Source of the DNA: a phage
Sequence record: PZ386974.1
Direction: 5' to 3' (one strand)
Length of the DNA: 64,000 nt
This document shows, piece after piece, positions 54,823 through 64,000 of this stretch. The notes under the pieces were generated by a model. That model was not told the origin of the DNA. It was given only the letters and a program-made list of their open reading frames with translations, and did not search any database. The position numbers were made by a program, and so were the translations under genes. How positions within the stretch are numbered: position 1 is the first letter of the stretch; each line of letters starts with the position of its first letter.

Positions 54823-55038
54823 TTACCCCAGTTTAACCATGCAATCGCCGTATTTCCATTTAGAAATAGACTTTTCGCCATTAGAATAATAAACTTCGAG
54901 TTTAGCACGATTATTTTTAATTTGAATAACCTTGGCTGTCATCAAAGTTCCATACCCATAGTAAACTGCAACTTCATCACCTACATACACCGCGTTTCCA
55001 CGGTAGTCATGGATATAATCAGTTCCTTTAAGCATCAT
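54823..55038 (-). CDS. hypothetical protein (71 aa)
   Basis: ATG; ATGA-coupled to nrdC. Confidence 0.45.
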   Translation of the reverse strand: MMLKGTDYIHDYRGNAVYVGDEVAVYYGYGTLMTAKVIQIKNNRAKLEVYYSNGEKSISKWKYGDCMVKLG

Positions 55039-55298
55039 TTAAAATATTCCCGCAGTTGATCAAATCCACCGATCGAAGTTCCATCAGGAGCAAACACCTG
55101 AGGCATCGTCAACCCAACATGTGTTTCACGTCCTAGTTTATTCAGAAGCTCGTCAATTTTTTCTTCATCAAATACACCTTTCTCTGGCATCACGTTAATG
55201 AATTCGAACGGCTGTTTCTTAACAGTCAGCAATCGTTTCGCATTATCACAATAAATGCATTTATGAATAGTAGAGTCATACCCGTACACTTTAAACAT
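55035..55298 (-). CDS. nrdC: glutaredoxin/thioredoxin NrdC
   Basis: Start set to ATG at 55298 (MFKVYGYDSTIHKCIYCDNAKRLL...) giving 87 aa as recalled T4 NrdC; AAAGGA SD. Confidence 0.85.
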   Translation of the reverse strand: MFKVYGYDSTIHKCIYCDNAKRLLTVKKQPFEFINVMPEKGVFDEEKIDELLNKLGRETHVGLTMPQVFAPDGTSIGGFDQLREYFK

Positions 55299-55704
55299 TA
55301 TTTTTCCTTTCATCAATTAAATATGCAATGCCAAATACAATACATGTAATAAAACCTGTGATACAGATAGAAACCAACAACACTGTACCAAAGAACCAAA
55401 TCAAGTTATCTTTAGTAGTTTGTTTGATATCCATCTCACGAATTTCTATAGCTATCGTATCACCTTTATTCAGAAGCGTATAAAACGATGGCGATACACG
55501 CCTGTCAAAAACTCGTCCTTGCTCATCTTTATAGACGGCAATAAATTCTAATTTAGAATATTTTCCTGTAGATTGACCTGAGATTAGCTCTACTACCTCC
55601 ACAGGAATTACTTTAGTTTCCATGTAAGTATTCTGGCTGTTCCAAATGAACGGGATGATGGCAAAAACTAAAGCTGCAATAAAACAACGAAGACTATATC
55701 TCAT
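55291..55704 (-). CDS. membrane protein (137 aa, two hydrophobic segments)
   Basis: ATG; TAATG-coupled. Confidence 0.5.
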   Translation of the reverse strand: MRYSLRCFIAALVFAIIPFIWNSQNTYMETKVIPVEVVELISGQSTGKYSKLEFIAVYKDEQGRVFDRRVSPSFYTLLNKGDTIAIEIREMDIKQTTKDNLIWFFGTVLLVSICITGFITCIVFGIAYLIDERKNNV

Positions 55705-56009
55705 TATAATGTTCTCTCAAATTTGTGGAAGCATTTACGGCATTTCAATTTCAAGTTATCACTGGTCCAGTTAACCAGTTGGACTTGGATAGTTCCACAT
55801 TCTGGGCATGGGTGTTTTGCTGCCGATTTGGCAGCATTTTCACGTCGTTCAACCATTTTCATTATTTCGTTCCATGCTGGAGGAACGAACTCTTCTTCAC
55901 CATGAATTTTATCTCGCTGAACAAATTCAATCTTTGAACTATCATCAATAAACTTAACTAAGCCATGATTAGTGCTCATATCAATATCCTCTAGAAGACG
56001 TAGGTTCAT
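55704..56009 (-). CDS. zinc-ribbon protein (101 aa)
   Basis: CPECG...CRKC pairs; TAATG-coupled. Confidence 0.5.
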   Translation of the reverse strand: MNLRLLEDIDMSTNHGLVKFIDDSSKIEFVQRDKIHGEEEFVPPAWNEIMKMVERRENAAKSAAKHPCPECGTIQVQLVNWTSDNLKLKCRKCFHKFERTL

Positions 56010-56956
56010 TATAACACCTCAATGGCATTTCGTAAACCATCCGCTTTCGCGTTCAGAGCTTTTAACGATTTAGTCTGTTCTTTAATCTGGGCTTCGACTT
56101 CTTTAAGACGAGATTTGAGATATTCACGTTCTTCGCTCAAGTTGTCAACTTTTTCTACTTTAGGTTCTTTAATAGTCTTAAGTTTATACTCGTTAGGGTT
56201 CTTCAACTTAATTTGAATGCGAGAACTGAATAACATCGAACCGTTATCTTCGGTTTCGTCATACATTTCTACTACGTCCATGATTCTTAACATCATGCGA
56301 AGTTTATAAGACAGCGAACGAACGGTTTTATTGTGCTTCTTAATTTCTTCAGCTTTCATGGTGCCGAGATTACGTGAGTAGTAATAAGGAACCTGGATAT
56401 CAATTGACAATGATGCGTTACCATTACCTGTTGGTTTGAATACTGCAGTAACCCAATCTTTAACATGAACTTTATTTGTACGATCATCGCCACCAGTGAA
56501 TAATTTACGAGAATGTTTAAAAAGCATATTCACTTGGTTATTGAATTCACAAGCAAATTTATCAGCAAATTTAGTTTCAGGAATGGTAGATAACCAATCA
56601 GCCAAATGAGTCTTTTTAACATCATTAACAATAGTGAATTCAACCAAATCGGTTTTAGATGTCACAGATTTAATAAAGCTCGGCTTCATAAAGTTTTTAA
56701 TGTTATCGCGAGCTACAGTAGAAGATAATAAACGAGAACGTTTGAACCATTGAAGCAGCGTCCCTAATGAATGAGAATATGCATTTTGAGTATCTTTACA
56801 GATATGATTTTCTTGGCCTGTGTATGTAAGAAAATCACGAAGAATACTATAAACCACACCTTTATGTGGAACATCAGTCCAAGCACCAGTAGCACGTTGA
56901 GCGTGAGCGTTAGCGATAAGACCGGCAAAGTATTCAATGTAATGTGAACGTGTCAT
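56009..56956 (-). CDS. hypothetical protein with C-terminal coiled coil (315 aa)
   Basis: ATG; own promoter cassette. Confidence 0.5.
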   Translation of the reverse strand: MTRSHYIEYFAGLIANAHAQRATGAWTDVPHKGVVYSILRDFLTYTGQENHICKDTQNAYSHSLGTLLQWFKRSRLLSSTVARDNIKNFMKPSFIKSVTSKTDLVEFTIVNDVKKTHLADWLSTIPETKFADKFACEFNNQVNMLFKHSRKLFTGGDDRTNKVHVKDWVTAVFKPTGNGNASLSIDIQVPYYYSRNLGTMKAEEIKKHNKTVRSLSYKLRMMLRIMDVVEMYDETEDNGSMLFSSRIQIKLKNPNEYKLKTIKEPKVEKVDNLSEEREYLKSRLKEVEAQIKEQTKSLKALNAKADGLRNAIEVL

Positions 56957-56984
56957 AATATTTTCCTCTCGTTAAGATAAATTC

Positions 56985-57014
56985 ATTATACTCCAACCAT
57001 CCTTGGTTGTAAAC
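56985..57014 (-). promoter_or_regulatory. early-type promoter cassette (GTTTAC-N18-TATAAT), spacer hairpin
   Basis: 30 bp identical to 15481..15510; upstream of 315-aa ORF. Confidence 0.5.
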
Positions 57015-57018
57015 TGAT

Positions 57019-57978
57019 TTATGATTTTAACGCATTCATTGCGTTAAAAAGTTTAGAATACTGCAACTGGAGATTCGTTACAACACTTTGAGCATCACGA
57101 AGCTTAGCTTGTGCTTTGTCAAGTTCAACAGACAGTTGGTCCATAGTGGCCTTGATTTGATTGTAATGGTAATCTTCGACCGGAAGAAGGTCATTAGAAA
57201 CATTTAGTTTTACTGCAGACAGTTTGCACACATTTGGCAAACCTTTAAACATTGATTTACCCGAAGTAGAATAAGCACTTAGGACTTCGGCCTGTTCAAT
57301 TGGGGTCCCAGTAAGCGATGCTTCAAACGTTGCATTTTCCTTTTTAAGATTTTGATAATATTCGGAGTCTTTGTGCCACCATGGCGCAGGAACCTTTTTA
57401 CCAATAGATACACGAGCCTGGATAGCGATATGGCCCTTATTCTTGATAGGGTTGATAATATTAAGCTCACGAGAATAAATTGCTTTAATCTGGTGGATAT
57501 TATCACCTAACACTTCCAATGCTTGGTGGAATACACGAGCAACGTTATCATTCTTAGGTTTATACGTAAGAGTGAACTCATTCTCACTGATAACCATGAT
57601 TTCCAACTTATCGTAAGTATATTTCAAATGTTTCATGTTAATTGCTTGAGGACGAATACGAGAAGCAATGGCCATCAGATTGTTAAGGTTATTCCGGAAC
57701 TGCTTAGCGAAATATTGACCTTCACCGCCAATACAAAAATTACGAAGTTTCTGTTTGGCCAATAAACGGCTGAACTCACCATTTTTAATGAACTCTTTAA
57801 CGGGTGTGTTAGTAACGCATTCAAATTGGGTAAACATACGAGAAGTAATCCCATAATATGAACAGATTTCCTCAATCTCTTCAGGAGTCTTTACAGGCAT
57901 ACGGATAGGATTAGGTCCTGGAGTATATGCGTTCGAGGTAAATTCTTTGATAAGTTCTCTACGTGTAATAAAAGCCAT
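57019..57978 (-). CDS. hypothetical protein with C-terminal coiled coil (319 aa)
   Basis: ATG; own promoter cassette. Confidence 0.5.
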   Translation of the reverse strand: MAFITRRELIKEFTSNAYTPGPNPIRMPVKTPEEIEEICSYYGITSRMFTQFECVTNTPVKEFIKNGEFSRLLAKQKLRNFCIGGEGQYFAKQFRNNLNNLMAIASRIRPQAINMKHLKYTYDKLEIMVISENEFTLTYKPKNDNVARVFHQALEVLGDNIHQIKAIYSRELNIINPIKNKGHIAIQARVSIGKKVPAPWWHKDSEYYQNLKKENATFEASLTGTPIEQAEVLSAYSTSGKSMFKGLPNVCKLSAVKLNVSNDLLPVEDYHYNQIKATMDQLSVELDKAQAKLRDAQSVVTNLQLQYSKLFNAMNALKS

Positions 57979-58004
57979 TTTATATTCCTCATGTTGAAAA
58001 ATTT

Positions 58005-58034
58005 ATTATACTCCAACCATCCTTGGTTGTACAT
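58005..58034 (-). promoter_or_regulatory. early-type promoter cassette variant (TGTACA ... TATAAT), spacer hairpin
   Basis: 28/30 identical to 15481..15510; upstream of 319-aa ORF. Confidence 0.45.
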
Positions 58035-59029
58035 CATTCCTTAAGAAGTTTTACTACTTGAATAAGATTAGCTCGTTCTGTTTTATTTTTACCGTTTAAG
58101 CCTGCTAATCGTGAGATTTCATCGTCAGTCTGTTGAATAGTTACATTAAGTTCGTTAATCAAAGCTTCAAAGTATTTGATTTGCTCAGCATGTTTTGATT
58201 CAAATTTCTGAACCGGAATAACGTCTTGGTTCAGTTCATCAATAAGGTCTTTAAGAGCATCTTCTTGGTTGATATCATATTCAACTTCTTTTATTTCTTC
58301 AACTAGCTCGTCTTTATATCTAACGTCTTTTAGTCCTGGTGCTGGTCCTGAAATCTCTTCTTTAAGAGTACAAACATACCCAATACGGTATCCAGTGCCG
58401 TCTCGCTTGATATCAACTTCGTCGATAAATCCACAATGTTTGAGACCAGAGCCGATTAGGTCAAAATATCCTTGACGACGTCCTTCAAACGTTACACGAA
58501 CTACTAAGACAGTTTTGCCTGCAATCTTTTGAAGCTCACATTTATAAAAGTCAGTTGAACCTGAATAACGTGGATGAGTTTTAAAGTTCATCTGACGATC
58601 TAGGCCCATTTGTAAACGTGCTGTTACGGCCATAAAACGTGTTTGGTTCTCGTTAAGATGAGCAACAATCCATTTCAAAGGCATTTTACACTGTTCACGA
58701 CCGAACAAATCAGTACGTCCTAGATTACGCAGGATGTTGTTAGAGTTAATCATCGACAGAACGTTAAGTTTATTCAGCGCGCTGAAGATTCCATCAGCCA
58801 TTGATTTTCCGTAGCCTTTACACGCTTTAATAAGCGCTCGCGGTAGATTAGTATAGATTTCAGACGGCATATGAAAATCAAATTTACTAACCAGTAATTG
58901 ATGAACTTGGATAGCAATTCGTTCATAATTAAGCGCTCTGCGATCATTATGGTCTTTAAACCACACTTTAATCTGTGAAGCACATAAACCGTTAATTTCA
59001 TGTTTTATCGCATCAGATGTAATGCTCAT
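58034..59029 (-). CDS. hypothetical protein with C-terminal coiled coil (331 aa)
   Basis: ATG; own promoter cassette. Confidence 0.5.
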   Translation of the reverse strand: MSITSDAIKHEINGLCASQIKVWFKDHNDRRALNYERIAIQVHQLLVSKFDFHMPSEIYTNLPRALIKACKGYGKSMADGIFSALNKLNVLSMINSNNILRNLGRTDLFGREQCKMPLKWIVAHLNENQTRFMAVTARLQMGLDRQMNFKTHPRYSGSTDFYKCELQKIAGKTVLVVRVTFEGRRQGYFDLIGSGLKHCGFIDEVDIKRDGTGYRIGYVCTLKEEISGPAPGLKDVRYKDELVEEIKEVEYDINQEDALKDLIDELNQDVIPVQKFESKHAEQIKYFEALINELNVTIQQTDDEISRLAGLNGKNKTERANLIQVVKLLKE

Positions 59030-59091
59030 AACTATTTCCTCAGATTGAATTGGAACTCAAAACCATTATAACCCGTCCTTGGGTAAAGCGT

Positions 59092-59619
59092 TTATGCGTG
59101 AACCGTCTTTAAACGTTCTTCAAATTTCCGAAGAGTACTAATACGTTCTGCTTTCTGTTTTGTATAGTTTGCAATACGTTCCGAAGTGAGAGCGTATCGT
59201 TCGTTTACTGTTTCTTTCATGAAGTCAGGGATTTCACGAGAAGCTTTAATTTCATCAAACTTATCGAGTACTGCCTGGTCTTCAGCGATTAAATTTTCGT
59301 ACATCTCGATATCTTTCTTAATAAACTCGATATCTTCCTGGGTTACTTTGGATAAACGAGATGCTTTATCCTTTTTGTACTGCTCGTTAGTTTCACGAGA
59401 CCAGAATAATGTACGGTTTTTGTTAGTGTTTTTGTAGACTTCCACAATTCCAACTGAATCGATGATAACAATCCAATTCCAGCGAGATTTGAAAATCTGA
59501 CCTCCATCTACGGTAATCTCGTTACCATAAGCAACGTCATTAAAGAACTTGCTTTGTGCTTCAGATTTAAATTTACCGTCGTTATAATTTACCAGGTTGA
59601 AAATATCTTTAGCGTTCAT
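59092..59619 (-). CDS. hypothetical protein (175 aa)
   Basis: ATG; own promoter cassette. Confidence 0.5.
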   Translation of the reverse strand: MNAKDIFNLVNYNDGKFKSEAQSKFFNDVAYGNEITVDGGQIFKSRWNWIVIIDSVGIVEVYKNTNKNRTLFWSRETNEQYKKDKASRLSKVTQEDIEFIKKDIEMYENLIAEDQAVLDKFDEIKASREIPDFMKETVNERYALTSERIANYTKQKAERISTLRKFEERLKTVHA

Positions 59620-59646
59620 GTTTTACCTCCAGTAGTTGATAGGTCT

Positions 59647-59675
59647 ATAATAACATAACCATAGACCTTGTAAAC
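59647..59675 (-). promoter_or_regulatory. early-type promoter cassette (GTTTAC-N17-TATTAT AGACCTATCA)
   Basis: Upstream of 175-aa ORF. Confidence 0.5.
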
Positions 59676-59677
59676 AA

Positions 59678-59965
59678 CTAAAAGAAACTTTTTTCGGTAT
59701 TTTTTCCACTGAACCAAACCGACTTCGGGATTTTTTGTAATTTTTCAGATTTAAGTTTCTCTTCCTGTTCTTTCTTATATACACCCTTGTCGTACTGGAG
59801 CATCTCTATGGCATTCTTTTGCAAACGATCTAAGGTAATTAAGGCTTTAGTTTTTCCTTTCAAGGAAGAGTCCTGGCGAACCTCCTCGCTATATTGCATC
59901 GTAGAACTAACCATACGATGAGCATAGAGTTCGACTGCGGCTTTAATTTTTTGCATAAAATCCAT
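59678..59965 (-). CDS. hypothetical protein (95 aa)
   Basis: ATG start. Confidence 0.45.
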   Translation of the reverse strand: MDFMQKIKAAVELYAHRMVSSTMQYSEEVRQDSSLKGKTKALITLDRLQKNAIEMLQYDKGVYKKEQEEKLKSEKLQKIPKSVWFSGKNTEKSFF

Positions 59966-60102
59966 AACATATCCTCTTTGATTTGTACATCATTATTTTA
60001 AATATTTCTATGCCCTCAGTAGGTTCCTAGTGTCCTTCTTTGAGGTAAGCCATATGATTATTCATCTTTATGGCTTTTGTTACCTCAGAACTTCCTATAA
60101 GC

Positions 60103-61083
60103 TTATTTCAGTAAAGTTACTTCGGAGATTTCCTCCCAACCATCTTTATCAGTTGAAATAAAATCTGCTACATAAAGAGCCGTACGTAATGATACATTGC
60201 GAAGACGAGATACGTTAGCCTTCATCCAGGACAATGCTTTGTACGTTTCAGCATCAGTCAGACCACGTTTCTGCATCATGTCAGTAGATAATATTACGTC
60301 TTCAACTCGAACCATAATCTCTTCATTAGAGTGTACTCCAAGGTCGAGATACACTGAACGAGATACTAAAGCTTGAAGGTGTGGGGCAAGTTTCGAACCA
60401 CGTTCTAACTCTTTATCGATATCAACGTTTGTAATGAAAACGATAGTACCTTCAAACTCAAATTCTTTATCAATACCCTTATCATCAAGATAAGATGACG
60501 CAGTGCTCCAACAAACTTTGCGTTTATCTCCGGTATCTAATGCTGCTTTAAGAAGGTTCAAGATATCCATATCAGAGAATACATCAACATCGTCGATTAA
60601 GAGAACGCTGTCTGCATCACGGTTGAGCCAAAGTTGTTCGTAAAGGCCGATACCAGAGATTTTACCATTAATGCTTTTGTATTTGATGAAACCATTATCA
60701 TTAGCATTATTAAGTGCTTTATCCAGAGAATACGTCTTACCAATACCGGCTGCACCTGAAATGATGAGTGAACGAATTTTGCCATCGATAATGCCATTCG
60801 TCATCATGTTCATTACTTTAAAGCGTTTGTTGATACGAGTTTTCATATCTTCAGTGCTTTCAACAACTGCAACTGGTGATGTCTCAACTCCTTCCATTAC
60901 GATGTCTGATTTGAAGACCCATACTCCACGTTCAGAACCATCAATCATAACGAAAATTTTACCATCACCTAAGTGGGAACATTCAGGATTAAGCTTTGCT
61001 GGGAACCATGTCTTTGTGGCGACATAAGAACCAGAGATTTCGTTATTACGATAGATACCTTTTTTGATTTGAACGTTGAACAT
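60103..61083 (-). CDS. P-loop ATPase (AAA-like), 326 aa
   Basis: Walker A GAAGIGKT and Walker B LLIDDVD; start set to ATG at 61083 with GGAGAA SD. Confidence 0.6.
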   Translation of the reverse strand: MFNVQIKKGIYRNNEISGSYVATKTWFPAKLNPECSHLGDGKIFVMIDGSERGVWVFKSDIVMEGVETSPVAVVESTEDMKTRINKRFKVMNMMTNGIIDGKIRSLIISGAAGIGKTYSLDKALNNANDNGFIKYKSINGKISGIGLYEQLWLNRDADSVLLIDDVDVFSDMDILNLLKAALDTGDKRKVCWSTASSYLDDKGIDKEFEFEGTIVFITNVDIDKELERGSKLAPHLQALVSRSVYLDLGVHSNEEIMVRVEDVILSTDMMQKRGLTDAETYKALSWMKANVSRLRNVSLRTALYVADFISTDKDGWEEISEVTLLK

Positions 61084-61121
61084 TTTATTCTCCAATTTAC
61101 TCATTTCGTTTCGATAGGTCT

Positions 61122-61149
61122 ATAATAACATATCCTAAAAGCATGTACA
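61122..61149 (-). promoter_or_regulatory. early-type promoter cassette variant (TGTACA ... TATTAT AGACCTATCGA)
   Basis: Upstream of P-loop ATPase gene. Confidence 0.4.
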
Positions 61150-61177
61150 CTACTTTTTAAAAATATTTTAACCCCCT

Positions 61178-61196
61178 AAAGGGACCCGAAGGTCCC
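61178..61196 (-). terminator. UUCG-tetraloop hairpin GGGACC/GGTCCC (terminator-like)
   Basis: Downstream of secreted-protein ORF; weak U-tail. Confidence 0.35.
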
Positions 61197-61201
61197 CACA
61201 T

Positions 61202-61483
61202 TTACTTATCGCACTTAGCAACATAATTAGGCATATCACAGAATACGGAGCGAGTAACTACTCGACCCTTTGACCATGCTTCAGTTGCTTGTCCGGCAGT
61301 GCTATTAATATAGCTTGATTTGATATTCTCAATACCCTGAGAATGTGATGCATTTACCGAACCGTTGGAAGGCCCAGAAGACTGGTTACCACCAGCTCCT
61401 GCACTACCGCTGGCTGCACCCGTGGTAGCACCAACAGAGAACGCCATCATTACTGCGAATAAACCAATTACTAATTTTTTCAT
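61202..61483 (-). CDS. secreted Gly/Ser-rich protein (93 aa)
   Basis: N-terminal signal peptide MKKLVIGLFAVMMAFSVGA; two C-terminal Cys. Confidence 0.5.
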   Translation of the reverse strand: MKKLVIGLFAVMMAFSVGATTGAASGSAGAGGNQSSGPSNGSVNASHSQGIENIKSSYINSTAGQATEAWSKGRVVTRSVFCDMPNYVAKCDK

Positions 61484-61514
61484 ATTTACCTCAAGTGAAT
61501 GGTTATTTATCTAT

Positions 61515-62504
61515 TTATTTATAGTAAGAATTATGATTTTCGAGATAGACTTGCTCAAGGAAATCATCCCAGAAACTCATATCTACTTTTTGTTGCATAC
61601 CGTTCTTAGCGGCTTGTTCTGATGCTTGTTCAACTTGGTCAACGATATCTTCTAGGAATTCTTGTACAGTTTTAAACGTATGTTTACCAAGCTTAACATC
61701 GAGAATAAATGGAGCATCCTGAAGCGGGTAAACCAGGTCACCGGTTTTGTAAATTTCCAATAATTGAAGTCCACCACGACATGCATGACTCAATGCTTTC
61801 CAGTCAATACCTTCGTTGGCTTCCGCCTTACGAGCACGTTCACCATAGTTCTCTTCCAGTTTAACCAGGATGGCATTGAACTCTTTATTGGTTAACGTGT
61901 CTTGGAATTTACGGTCCAACAGATTATAGAATGTTTGCTTACCTGTTTTCTCGTTTTCGGTTTCAACCCACGAAGCAAATTCACCTACAGGCAGAACATT
62001 CTTCATATGTGATAAACGAATTACTGCACCATTATCAAAGTATTGTCCCCATTCATTAGAACGTTTAAGGGCTTGTCGAAGAACAGCCAGTCGAGAACCC
62101 TTGACACCGTATTTAGAAGCTTGCTTACGGACATACCCTAAATAAGATTTCATGTTAGTGGTATAGAAACGAGACCTGTTATCTTGAATATACTTCCATA
62201 CATCAGGCAAATCAGATTTAACTACTAGACTTTGTGGAGTGTGAAGCATATCTAATGCGACGGTTTCACCATCTGCAGCTAGTTTAAAGAAATATTTGAG
62301 ACTATATAACTCATGGTCCACGTCGTCTTTTGTGTTCTTAGAAGATGTGTTATTCGTGTTCTTGCTCATATGTTCTTTAACGTTACCGGTCAAGATATCA
62401 CGAGCATGAGGGACATAAATTTCTTTAAAATCAACGTCAGATTCTGGGGTAGACGTTCCATAAAGGTGGCTACCAAAGTAGCCTTTCATAATTGTTTTCA
62501 TCAT
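61515..62504 (-). CDS. Pol-beta superfamily nucleotidyltransferase-like protein (329 aa)
   Basis: N-terminal GSHLYGTSTPESDVDF (G-S-x9-D-x-D) motif. Confidence 0.55.
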   Translation of the reverse strand: MMKTIMKGYFGSHLYGTSTPESDVDFKEIYVPHARDILTGNVKEHMSKNTNNTSSKNTKDDVDHELYSLKYFFKLAADGETVALDMLHTPQSLVVKSDLPDVWKYIQDNRSRFYTTNMKSYLGYVRKQASKYGVKGSRLAVLRQALKRSNEWGQYFDNGAVIRLSHMKNVLPVGEFASWVETENEKTGKQTFYNLLDRKFQDTLTNKEFNAILVKLEENYGERARKAEANEGIDWKALSHACRGGLQLLEIYKTGDLVYPLQDAPFILDVKLGKHTFKTVQEFLEDIVDQVEQASEQAAKNGMQQKVDMSFWDDFLEQVYLENHNSYYK

Positions 62505-62974
62505 TTAGCCTTATATTCAAGAGTAGGACAGACTTTTTCTTTACGAGCTTTAAGGTATTCACCTATTAATGATTTCTTACGTTCAATAGGCGCAAGTCCA
62601 TTTTTAATTCGTTCTTGGTTTTGTGCAATGAGCTCAATTTCTTTATAATATTTTCTGTCGTTATATTTGTCTAACAACCAAGACGGACCAATTACCGCCC
62701 CGACAGCAATAAGAACCATTACTGATATTGTTAAAATGCCTATACCAATTGAAGCAGGAACTAATGTCCATAAACTACTAAAGACAAAGAATTTAGTTAA
62801 AATTTCTTGGCCAATGATTGCGGCACCTGCTAAAGTTGCAAATCCAACAATTGAAACAGCCAATACCGGAATAAACGTTTTCCAAAAATAAGCACATAAT
62901 GTTTTCGGACGATTCCATGTACTATTGAACGTGGCATAAATTTTAAAGTGCCAAGAGTTTTCATTGATAATCAT
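62501..62974 (-). CDS. membrane protein (157 aa)
   Basis: Multiple hydrophobic segments; ATGA-coupled. Confidence 0.5.
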   Translation of the reverse strand: MIINENSWHFKIYATFNSTWNRPKTLCAYFWKTFIPVLAVSIVGFATLAGAAIIGQEILTKFFVFSSLWTLVPASIGIGILTISVMVLIAVGAVIGPSWLLDKYNDRKYYKEIELIAQNQERIKNGLAPIERKKSLIGEYLKARKEKVCPTLEYKAK

Positions 62975-62983
62975 AATAATTCC

Positions 62984-63514
62984 TTATTTCAAAGTCGGGA
63001 TAATAGAATCGAGATAAGCTTTAAGAGCAACTGCTTCATCTTTGTCTAATGTAATGATATGTTGACGAAGGTCGTCAATTTGACGAATAACTACAACATC
63101 ACCGTCTTCATAAGAAGGATTAACGCTCAGGACTGTTGTATAGTCAGGGTTGTCCTGATTTGTAATAAAAGCATTACGACATTTAGCCCATTGAAGTTTG
63201 GCCTTTTTGGCTGTTTCAGATTCCATGAATTCTTTCACTTTAGCGACGAATGTTTTCCAATTATTAATAGAAAAACATTCGTCTTCTGTTTCGATATTAA
63301 CCCCACTATAAAGTCCGTGATAAAAACGAACTTGAAGGTCTTCATCAATGTTAATTACAGATGCATGGCCTGGTGGATTGAGTTTCAAAATCTTGTCCAG
63401 TTCCATAGGAAGAATAGTAACAGCATCATCTTCTTGCGTCAGAACGTAAGCATAACCGCGTTTTTCAATACATAAATCACCAAACAATTCAGTTGTTTCA
63501 ATTACAGTTTTCAT
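62984..63514 (-). CDS. hypothetical protein (176 aa)
   Basis: Track start is TTG; ATG at 63514 with GGTGA SD. Confidence 0.5.
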   Translation of the reverse strand: MKTVIETTELFGDLCIEKRGYAYVLTQEDDAVTILPMELDKILKLNPPGHASVINIDEDLQVRFYHGLYSGVNIETEDECFSINNWKTFVAKVKEFMESETAKKAKLQWAKCRNAFITNQDNPDYTTVLSVNPSYEDGDVVVIRQIDDLRQHIITLDKDEAVALKAYLDSIIPTLK

Positions 63515-63515
63515 A

Positions 63516-63695
63516 TTATTCACCAATTAAAGTTTCAACAAAATTCACCAAAGCATTCTGGCAAGCGTCAACCTGATTTTCATAAAAGTCTCCGTTATCA
63601 TTTACCGCATGATAAGCTACATCATTCAAATCTGAATCGGCTTCACGTAAGTCATGGATAAGGTCCATCAATTTATTAGCTTGTTCACGGGTCAT
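63516..63695 (-). CDS. hypothetical acidic protein (59 aa), below track threshold
   Basis: Translation MTREQANKLMDLIHDLREADSDL...; ATGA-coupled to upstream 36-codon ORF. Confidence 0.3.
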   Translation of the reverse strand: MTREQANKLMDLIHDLREADSDLNDVAYHAVNDNGDFYENQVDACQNALVNFVETLIGE

Positions 63696-63802
63696 TTTAC
63701 CATACTCGTTTCAATAAGATTCACTATGCCGTTTACCATGTTATAAGTAAACATCGGATAATTGTATTGTACTACAACATAAGCGATAAGCAAAAGTTTC
63801 AT
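63692..63802 (-). CDS. small hydrophobic peptide (36 aa), below track threshold
   Basis: ATG with GGAGAA SD directly downstream of promoter cassette. Confidence 0.25.
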   Translation of the reverse strand: MKLLLIAYVVVQYNYPMFTYNMVNGIVNLIETSMVK

Positions 63803-63830
63803 TTTGTTCTCCGTTCGTTTTGATAGGACT

Positions 63831-63860
63831 ACTATAACATAGTCCTATCAAGTTGTAAAC
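63831..63860 (-). promoter_or_regulatory. early-type promoter cassette (GTTTAC-N18-TATAGT), IR TAGGACTA/TAGTCCTA
   Basis: Upstream of small ORF chain and 176-aa ORF. Confidence 0.45.
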
Positions 63861-64000
63861 TACCGATTGTGTTTTAAATGTTGATAAAGTTCTTCAACTT
63901 GTTTAGGGTCCAAAACAATTAAGTCATTTTCTTGACGAAGATAAATCCATCCCTTATCCCCAGGGCCATTTTTACAAAACATCACCGTCGTCATATCGTC
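63860..64000 (-). CDS. hypothetical protein, partial (N-terminus beyond window end)
   Basis: Open frame from window end to TAG at 63862-63860. Confidence 0.35.
   Translation of the reverse strand, partial: DDMTTVMFCKNGPGDKGWIYLRQENDLIVLDPKQVEELYQHLKHNR

Follow-up and report, generated by a model that had tools for sequence, protein, structure and literature searches.

The polynucleotide kinase/phosphatase PseT and the ligase Rnl1 of bacteriophage T4 are the founding example of RNA repair in the host–virus arms race, and nucleotide excision by RloC-type nucleases is thought to have arisen as an answer to PseT/Rnl1 repair. Here we describe a nucleotidyltransferase (NTase) gene in a 64,000-nucleotide (nt) stretch of phage DNA (sequence record PZ386974.1; hereafter referred to as the window) and compare its product with the RlaP family of RNA 3′-end transferases. 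The gene is the orthologue of T4 nrdC.11, and its product falls into a ‘long’ subfamily that appears to share only the catalytic core with the characterised RlaP enzymes. Cellular relatives of this subfamily occur in RNA-repair operons, and the phage enzyme may extend broken RNA 3′ ends before they are resealed by PseT and Rnl1.

The family PF10127 was named ‘RNA-ligase-associating Pol-beta’ (RlaP) from comparative genomics, in which the distribution of RlaP among jumbo phages mirrored that of RNA ligases, and phage RlaPs were predicted to restore the nucleotides removed by RloC-type nucleases before ligation (PMC7824862). A preprint has since reported that the RlaPs of Pseudomonas fluorescens (PfRlaP) and P. 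aeruginosa (PaRlaP) add one or two nucleoside monophosphates (NMPs), or deoxynucleoside monophosphates, to the 3′-OH of RNA; the two enzymes prefer Mn2+, leave DNA and protein unmodified and, given a nicked tRNA mimic, act preferentially on its 5′ half, and RlaP partly rescues the aminoacylation of a repaired tRNA missing one nucleotide (10.64898/2025.12.29.696909). T4 nrdC.11 itself was recognised in 2006 as a COG3541 nucleotidyltransferase (PMC1524935), and its product was placed in PF10127, in sequence similarity network cluster 5, as ‘of unknown function’ (preprint 10.64898/2025.12.29.696909). The homing-endonuclease gene mobD is inserted at the nrdC.11/mobD.1 junction of T4 (PMC2988022). 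Both the gene and its family are thus already known: the NTase gene nrdC.11, in PF10127, is genuine, intact and widely conserved among phages.

The open reading frame (ORF) of the window NTase lies on the minus strand, with its ATG at the 62504 end and a TAA stop at 61517..61515 (Table 1). The surrounding region is 96–99% identical to RB69/JS09-type coliphages (Mosigvirus, Straboviridae), and the protein aligns with T4 NrdC.11 (NP_049709.1) over its full length, with 77.7% identity across 337 alignment columns. The ORF carries the label ‘nucleotidyltransferase; nrdC.11’ in the annotated relative JS09, where it is flanked by nrdC.10 and, past a membrane-protein gene, by mobD.1; in T4, the order is nrdC.10, nrdC.11 and then mobD. 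High full-length identity to T4 NrdC.11 and the nrdC.10 and mobD.1 flanks, the features of this orthologous group, are both present, and the window protein is orthologous to T4 NrdC.11, in its RB69-group (Mosigvirus) form. Public databases already contain proteins 100% identical to the window product, and a tblastn search found NrdC.11 homologues in 1521 phage records, nearly all of them T4-like. Orthologues are labelled ‘thioredoxin’ in many GenBank phage records (for example, mogra, AV110 and FL31); Pfam detects no thioredoxin domain in the window protein, and these labels look like a carry-over from the name of the neighbouring nrdC gene.

Profile searches matched the protein to PF10127 with 48.7 bits against a gathering cut-off of 23 (E = 1e-12), the match being confined to residues 7–140, equivalent to profile positions 23–147 of 249, and to phrog_388 ‘nucleotidyltransferase’ over the full length (E = 4e-126). 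NCBIfam and PADLOC searches returned nothing for the NTase, the membrane protein or the nrdC.10 product. Relatives of the protein numbered 3264 among 1.84 billion cluster representatives; 745 reached E ≤ 1e-30, most of these over the full length. We assessed conservation in an alignment of 93 of these relatives, which are 34–52% identical to the window protein. Residues G11, S12, S22, D23, D25, N57, D63, Y132, K236, R243 and G273 are invariant in this alignment, and D61 is conserved in 95% of the homologues. A reading of the DNA made from the letters alone (hereafter referred to as the sequence-only reading) had noticed a G-S…D-x-D signature in the N-terminal region and had called the protein a Pol-β-superfamily nucleotidyltransferase. 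The signature is indeed there, at residues 11–26, and its defining positions, together with D63, are among the invariant ones, so that conservation of the catalytic residues, which that reading had proposed as a check, bears out the call, as do the family matches above. A G-S…D-x-D motif combined with a third aspartate is the standard three-carboxylate site of Pol-β-fold transferases. By residue conservation, the NTase is predicted to be catalytically intact, and we are confident that it is an active transferase of this fold. Outside the N-terminal region, the DWKALSHACR segment stands out, with K236 and R243 invariant and D234, S239, H240 and A241 at least 90% conserved in the same homologues; this segment probably lines the cleft that holds nucleoside triphosphate (NTP) and RNA.

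An AlphaFold2 model based on the 93-sequence alignment (mean predicted local distance difference test score (pLDDT) 94.1, predicted template modelling score 0.85) shows an α/β NTase domain at the N terminus; the C-terminal half is largely helical and contains a small β-sheet insert at approximately residues 177–201. Foldseek comparison of the model with the PDB gave weak matches only (E about 4e-3). The better ones were nearly all NTases, namely ANT(4′), 3c18, HalB, Tam41, LinB and MNT, and all meaningful matches were to NTase-fold enzymes. An unrelated fold, which would have spoken against the NTase assignment, was not seen. Sequence searches of the PDB with the protein, with the 93-sequence profile and with a profile of canonical RlaPs found nothing significant. 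The nearest solved structure is HalB (PDB 9dbh/9dbj), the NTase of the Hailong anti-phage system, and its structural similarity to the model is detectable; this resemblance is best taken to reflect a two-domain NTase architecture of which HalB is the nearest representative available.

To define the relationship with canonical RlaP, we built a profile from 15 sequences taken from bacterial loci, each of which matches PF10127 end to end (for example, with E = 5e-79). Alignment of this profile with the 93-sequence profile by hhalign covered residues 2–131 only (probability 94%, E = 1e-7). Within that stretch the GS pair, the DxD motif and the third aspartate are in register with S26/G27, D39/D41 and D72 of canonical RlaP, D63 aligning with an invariant aspartate in the canonical ‘lDxNGWD’ segment. 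The C-terminal approximately 200 residues could be aligned by neither Pfam nor hhalign, and homology to canonical RlaP over the full length was not found. Because only residues 2–131 align, we judge the NrdC.11 type from these profiles to be a branch of its own within the RlaP family, the ‘long’ branch, with only the catalytic core in common. The two forms also occupy different phages: canonical RlaPs were found in 86 phage records, essentially all from jumbo phages and none T4-like, and the long form is the Straboviridae type.

We then scanned one genome per prokaryotic species with the pattern D[WF]KA[LIV]SHAxR and obtained 192 loci encoding long-NTase relatives in bacterial and archaeal genomes, with the caveat that some of the metagenome-assembled contigs among them may be viral. 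Gene contexts were counted for the best 80 of the 192 loci (33–52% identity) by clustering of flanking ORFs and phmmer, with confirmation by Pfam. Full-length canonical RlaP genes (Pfam E about 1e-79) were found at 17 of these 80 loci, and in 15 of the 17 the RlaP gene lies directly downstream on the same strand. RtcB is present at 6 loci and Ro60/Rsr at 4, and at least one of canonical RlaP, RtcB and Ro60 is nearby at 23. One locus, that of an uncultured Nitrosospira (CAADGK010000054.1, 1558..12060; L031 in our numbering), is a compact same-strand array in the order Ro60–RtcB–RtcA–long NTase–canonical RlaP–Hen1–MoxR ATPase–vWA/metallopeptidase. This array ties the long subfamily itself, beyond PF10127 generally, to RNA-break repair, and the association with RNA-ligase and RNA-repair genes holds for bacterial and archaeal relatives of the clade.

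Tandem ‘long + short’ RlaP pairs were also seen at loci L013, L016, L021, L025, L032, L043 and L054, and further ones at L060, L067, L071, L078 and L080. We found no description of a tandem long NTase and canonical RlaP pairing in the literature examined on the family.

The function that we favour, with moderate confidence, is the addition of 1–2 nt to broken RNA 3′ ends without a template, in aid of tRNA repair by PseT and Rnl1. Through D23, D25 and D63, NrdC.11 would hold an NTP together with a pair of divalent metal ions (probably Mn2+), and its task would be to restore tRNA anticodon loops after host anticodon nucleases have not only cut but also trimmed them. The trimming nuclease would be of the RloC type, which excises the wobble nucleotide, and PseT and Rnl1 would then reseal a functional tRNA. 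The sequence-only reading had suggested that the enzyme might modify RNA or nucleotides or act in signalling, and the RNA part of this suggestion agrees with the addition of NMPs to RNA 3′-OH ends by the RlaP family. Beyond the orthology, fold, catalytic residues, core family membership and operon contexts of the clade described above, we infer the RNA substrate, the 1–2-nt limit, the metal preference and the role against RloC from bacterial homologues that share the N-terminal core only. The proposed partner is present in the lineage of the window: Rnl1 is encoded by UGJNEcP1, a Mosigvirus with approximately 96% identity to the window region. Moreover, counts of tblastn records for T4 Rnl1 and NrdC.11 are nearly superimposable across host genera, with 637 and 609 records, respectively, for Escherichia, 287 and 286 for Klebsiella, 83 and 83 for Shigella, 77 and 75 for Aeromonas, 69 and 69 for Acinetobacter, and 56 and 56 for Enterobacter.

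Several observations weigh against this function. The co-distribution of Rnl1 and NrdC.11 is consistent with cooperation, but shared descent within the Straboviridae explains it equally well. In T4, pseT and rnlA lie approximately 80 kb from nrdC.11, so that the phage genes share no operon, and 57 of the 80 cellular loci have none of the RNA-repair neighbours searched for. Because the C-terminal approximately 200 residues, which would form the other wall of the substrate cleft, have no detectable homology to characterised RlaPs, the substrate specificity of the long form could differ from theirs, and HalB, the nearest solved structure, makes DNA oligomers and does not extend RNA. The RlaP chemistry itself comes from an unreviewed preprint, whose in vivo model is a proposal. 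Finally, the nrdC.11–mobD.3 segment was lost from a viable genome-reduced T4 (PMC9825161); the gene is therefore dispensable on laboratory hosts, and any role must be conditional.

A more specific version of this proposal is tentative, and we would not rely on it: the long RlaP would be a separate, previously undescribed subfamily with its own C-terminal substrate-binding domain, paired with canonical RlaP in bacterial Ro60–RtcB–RtcA–Hen1 operons, and T-even phages would have retained the long enzyme alone as a third component, beside PseT and Rnl1, that defeats RloC-type nucleases, whose removal of a nucleotide renders simple religation useless.

The evidence from fold, family and catalytic residues would serve equally well for an RNA 3′-end transferase that restores or tails other ends, such as tRNA 3′-CCA, or that puts short tails on host or phage transcripts and thereby alters their stability during host takeover. 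PfRlaP labelled both rRNA-sized and tRNA-sized RNAs with little NTP specificity, and the phage gene lies in an early/middle region rich in host-takeover genes, far from pseT and rnlA. However, the bacterial relatives adjoin RtcB, RtcA, Ro60 and Hen1, a context of break repair and not of decay or CCA maturation, and Pfam does not match the protein to the poly(A) polymerase/CCA-adding family; we regard a substrate of this kind as unlikely. Protein nucleotidylylation, by which the enzyme would neutralise a host defence toxin or another protein in the manner of the AMPylators DrrA and GlnE or of MNT antitoxins, is more doubtful still. The relevant entries in the fold list score no better than many unrelated helical proteins there. 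In the Foldseek comparison the MNT–HEPN complex 7ae9 is only a weak match (E = 0.37), and characterised RlaPs did not label Escherichia coli proteins. The comparison with MNT antitoxins suggested by the sequence-only reading also fails on architecture: the protein has 329 residues in two domains, as against approximately 100–150 residues for MNT antitoxins, and has no HEPN partner, its neighbours being a two-helix membrane protein and a secreted 93-residue protein. The absence of a PADLOC match points the same way. A small-molecule NTase of the ANT(4′) or LinB type, modifying a metabolite or an antibiotic-like compound, is highly improbable: the TM-scores (0.27–0.37) and identities (8–10%) are low, what is shared is a generic architecture of NTase and helical C-terminal domains, and neither the phage context nor the RtcB/Ro60/Hen1 contexts suggest a small-molecule substrate.

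The remaining alternatives concern oligonucleotide synthesis and nucleotide signalling. Because Hailong pairs an NTase with a membrane protein, and no solved structure is closer than HalB, we tested whether the window holds a Hailong-like module, in which short DNA or RNA oligomers, made as by HalB, would act on the co-translated membrane protein, or a counter to Hailong, in which a decoy would hold HalA-type channels of the host shut once phage exonucleases have removed the host’s own signal. The NTase and HalB are 15% identical, and neither family profile finds HalB in the PDB sequences. There is no conserved C-terminal priming tyrosine: Y327 and Y328 fall in a variable tail, tail tyrosines other than the helix position Y320 (67% conserved) are not enriched, occurring in 40 of the 93 homologues where 33.5 would be expected (p about 0.10). 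Neither Y320 nor a tail tyrosine is present in 15 of the 93. The 157-residue two-helix neighbour has no HalA fold match and does not resemble a HalA-type channel with a DNA-binding crown domain; its gene is not consistently beside that of the NTase outside T-even phages, and start/stop overlaps are common in this region. On the lack of a priming tyrosine, of a HalA-like fold and of consistent adjacency, we rejected a Hailong-like pairing, and Hailong-related function of either kind is very improbable. Synthesis, capping or sequestering of cyclic or linear signalling nucleotides by a CD-NTase/cGAS-like enzyme is the least probable of the explanations considered. It draws only on the shared Pol-β superfamily fold and the G-S…D-x-D motif, whereas no CD-NTase match with a linked effector was found, and the comparison with CD-NTases put forward by the sequence-only reading is unsupported, with cGAS, DncV and CD-NTase chains all absent from the Foldseek PDB matches.

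The sequence-only reading also held that the NTase stop is ATGA-coupled to a downstream membrane-protein gene. An ATGA overlap exists, but the NTase stop takes no part in it: the ATG of the NTase gene overlaps the TGA of the membrane gene, which lies upstream on the coding strand and not downstream. At this overlap the minus strand reads …AAGGCTAAATGATGAAA, and an AAGG Shine–Dalgarno-like element stands 8 nt 5′ of the NTase ATG. The true downstream neighbour is the gene for a 93-residue signal-peptide protein, which starts 31 nt past the TAA without overlap.

The membrane protein represents a well-conserved phage family that has neither a name nor a Pfam entry, and its homologues occur in 1135 phage records. 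W8, C27, Y29, K147 and C149 are invariant among 58 diverse members and are held within two motifs, an N-terminal ‘SWH...LCxYFWKT’ and a C-terminal ‘YLKAKKxKxCP’. Structure prediction (pLDDT 86.6) gives a transmembrane hairpin of two helices, with short N- and C-terminal strands on the same side; no PDB fold matches it at E below 7, hence HalA does not either. The 4-nt overlap with the NTase gene is also found in Tequatrovirus AR1; because 14 of 33 gene junctions overlap in this region of JS09, such an overlap is poor evidence of a functional pair. Whereas the window, RB69/JS09 and Tequatrovirus AR1 have the membrane gene upstream of the NTase, T4 has mobD in that slot and no remnant of the membrane gene next to nrdC.11. 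In Acinetobacter phage Kimel another ORF separates the two genes, and a different ORF, with no relation to the membrane protein, precedes the NTase in KP15, Vibrio D527, a Raoultella jumbo phage and Sinorhizobium phiM19. Conversely, ICP1, Aeromonas AS-zj, a Yersinia jumbo phage and several metagenomic phages carry the membrane gene without an adjacent NTase. The pairing is most likely a matter of synteny within T-even phages, and not a functional link.

Elsewhere the membrane family has other company. In the Pakpunavirus Kat (Pseudomonas phage vB_Pae_Kat, L004 3001..4767), a homologue lies directly upstream of genes for an RNA ligase of the T4 Rnl1 type (PF09511, E = 8e-10) and a P-loop kinase. 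We considered a recurring link between this family and RNA repair and rejected it, as the arrangement was not repeated in four metagenomic contexts, ICP1, AS-zj or the Yersinia jumbo phage. In two metagenomic phages, L095 (3492..5380) and L099 (3477..5347), a gene for a GmrSD_N-domain protein precedes the membrane homologue, and a conserved ORF of 292–305 residues, with no Pfam match, follows it after 4 nt.

The features of the locus are collected in Table 1. The 93-residue secreted protein, which gives a weak, sub-threshold YbgS-like Pfam match (E = 0.0015), is encoded in RB69-type phages and not at the T4 position. The late-promoter motif TATAAATA ends approximately 33 nt upstream of the ATG of this gene (61483), and because of this motif the gene may also be transcribed late, independently of the NTase. 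The nrdC.10 gene adjoins nrdC.11 in T4, RB69-type phages and Acinetobacter phage Kimel, and does not in KP15; on the other side, the two T4_y05I Pfam families matched by the mobD.1 product are described as a putative transcription factor. A σ70-like promoter match could tentatively be assigned to a transcription unit of tk.1-like, mobD.1, membrane and NTase genes, and a terminator-like hairpin is a possible end of that unit. These boundaries are tentative, because the consensus scans gave promoter-like and terminator-like site counts no higher than those in shuffled controls. An Rfam scan of 55000..64000 gave no match, and a tRNA scan of the whole window found none.

Table 1 Features of the nrdC.11 locus, in window coordinates
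Feature	Position	Strand	Basis
nrdC.10 homologue, P-loop/AAA-like ATPase, phrog_1250	60103..61104	minus	AAA Pfam matches weak, below gathering score
Terminator-like hairpin after the small secreted-protein gene and before nrdC.10	61170..61186	minus	consensus scan only
Secreted protein, 93 residues, Gly/Ser/Asn/Ala-rich, signal peptide, phrog_2243	61202..61483	minus	ORF and phrog match
NrdC.11-type NTase coding sequence, 329 residues, begins MMKTIMKGYFGSHLYG	61515..62504	minus	ORF list and sequence
T4 late-promoter motif TATAAATA inside the NTase 3′ end	61516..61523	minus	sequence
C-terminal domain, residues 132–329, peculiar to the NrdC.11-type ‘long’ subfamily	61518..62111	minus	model and alignments
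DWKALSHACR signature of the long subfamily, residues 234–243	61776..61805	minus	conservation in 93 homologues
N-terminal NTase core, residues 2–131	62112..62501	minus	Pfam match and hhalign
D63 codon, third catalytic carboxylate (within DDVDHE)	62316..62318	minus	invariant in alignment
G-S…D-x-D motif GSHLYGTSTPESDVDF, residues 11–26, with catalytic D23 and D25	62427..62474	minus	93-homologue alignment
ATGA overlap, NTase ATG (62504..62502) on membrane-gene TGA (62503..62501)	62501..62504	minus	sequence
Two-transmembrane-helix protein, 157 residues, RB69ORF104c family, phrog_944	62501..62974	minus	ORF, phrog match and hydropathy
mobD.1 homologue, T4_y05I_N (E = 7.5e-41) and T4_y05I_C (E = 3.2e-20)	62984..63526	minus	Pfam
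σ70-like promoter match, TTTACA-17-TATAGT with extended −10 TG	63831..63859	minus	consensus scan only, tentative

If NrdC.11 does restore an excised nucleotide, it would represent the phage’s next move in the arms race, and in the best-studied phage. The gene is present in approximately 1500 sequenced T4-like phages, including many therapeutic candidates, and its role could affect host range on nuclease-carrying strains. To what was known of the gene and its family, our analysis adds that the phage enzyme appears to belong to a long subfamily sharing only the catalytic core with the characterised RlaPs, that this subfamily is typically paired with canonical RlaP in bacteria, and that the link with the membrane gene is probably syntenic and not functional.

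The long NTase and canonical RlaP have homologous N-terminal NTase cores, each followed by a C-terminal region that is mainly helical. Links to RNA-repair operons of the RtcB type exist for both, and the chemistry that they would likely share is the addition of one or two NMPs to an RNA 3′-OH. However, canonical RlaP has approximately 250–290 residues and the long form approximately 320, the latter with its own C-terminal DWKAxSHAxR motif and a β-sheet insert, and in bacteria the long form usually accompanies canonical RlaP instead of replacing it. The top Foldseek matches ANT(4′), LinB and 3c18 have the same combination of a Pol-β NTase domain and a helical C-terminal domain, but with TM-scores of only 0.25–0.37 and identities of 8–11% to the NTase, and the ANT(4′)-type enzymes act on small-molecule substrates and occur in resistance-gene contexts, not in phage or RNA-repair contexts. 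HalB differs in size and in reaction, having 217 residues as against 329 and making oligo-dA primed on its own C-terminal tyrosine. The T4 Pnk (PseT)/Rnl1 pathway, the proposed partner, consists of enzymes of other classes, and in its classical form it repairs the simple PrrC cut without nucleotide addition; it has the same phylogenetic distribution among phages as NrdC.11, and Rnl1 is present in the lineage to which the window belongs.

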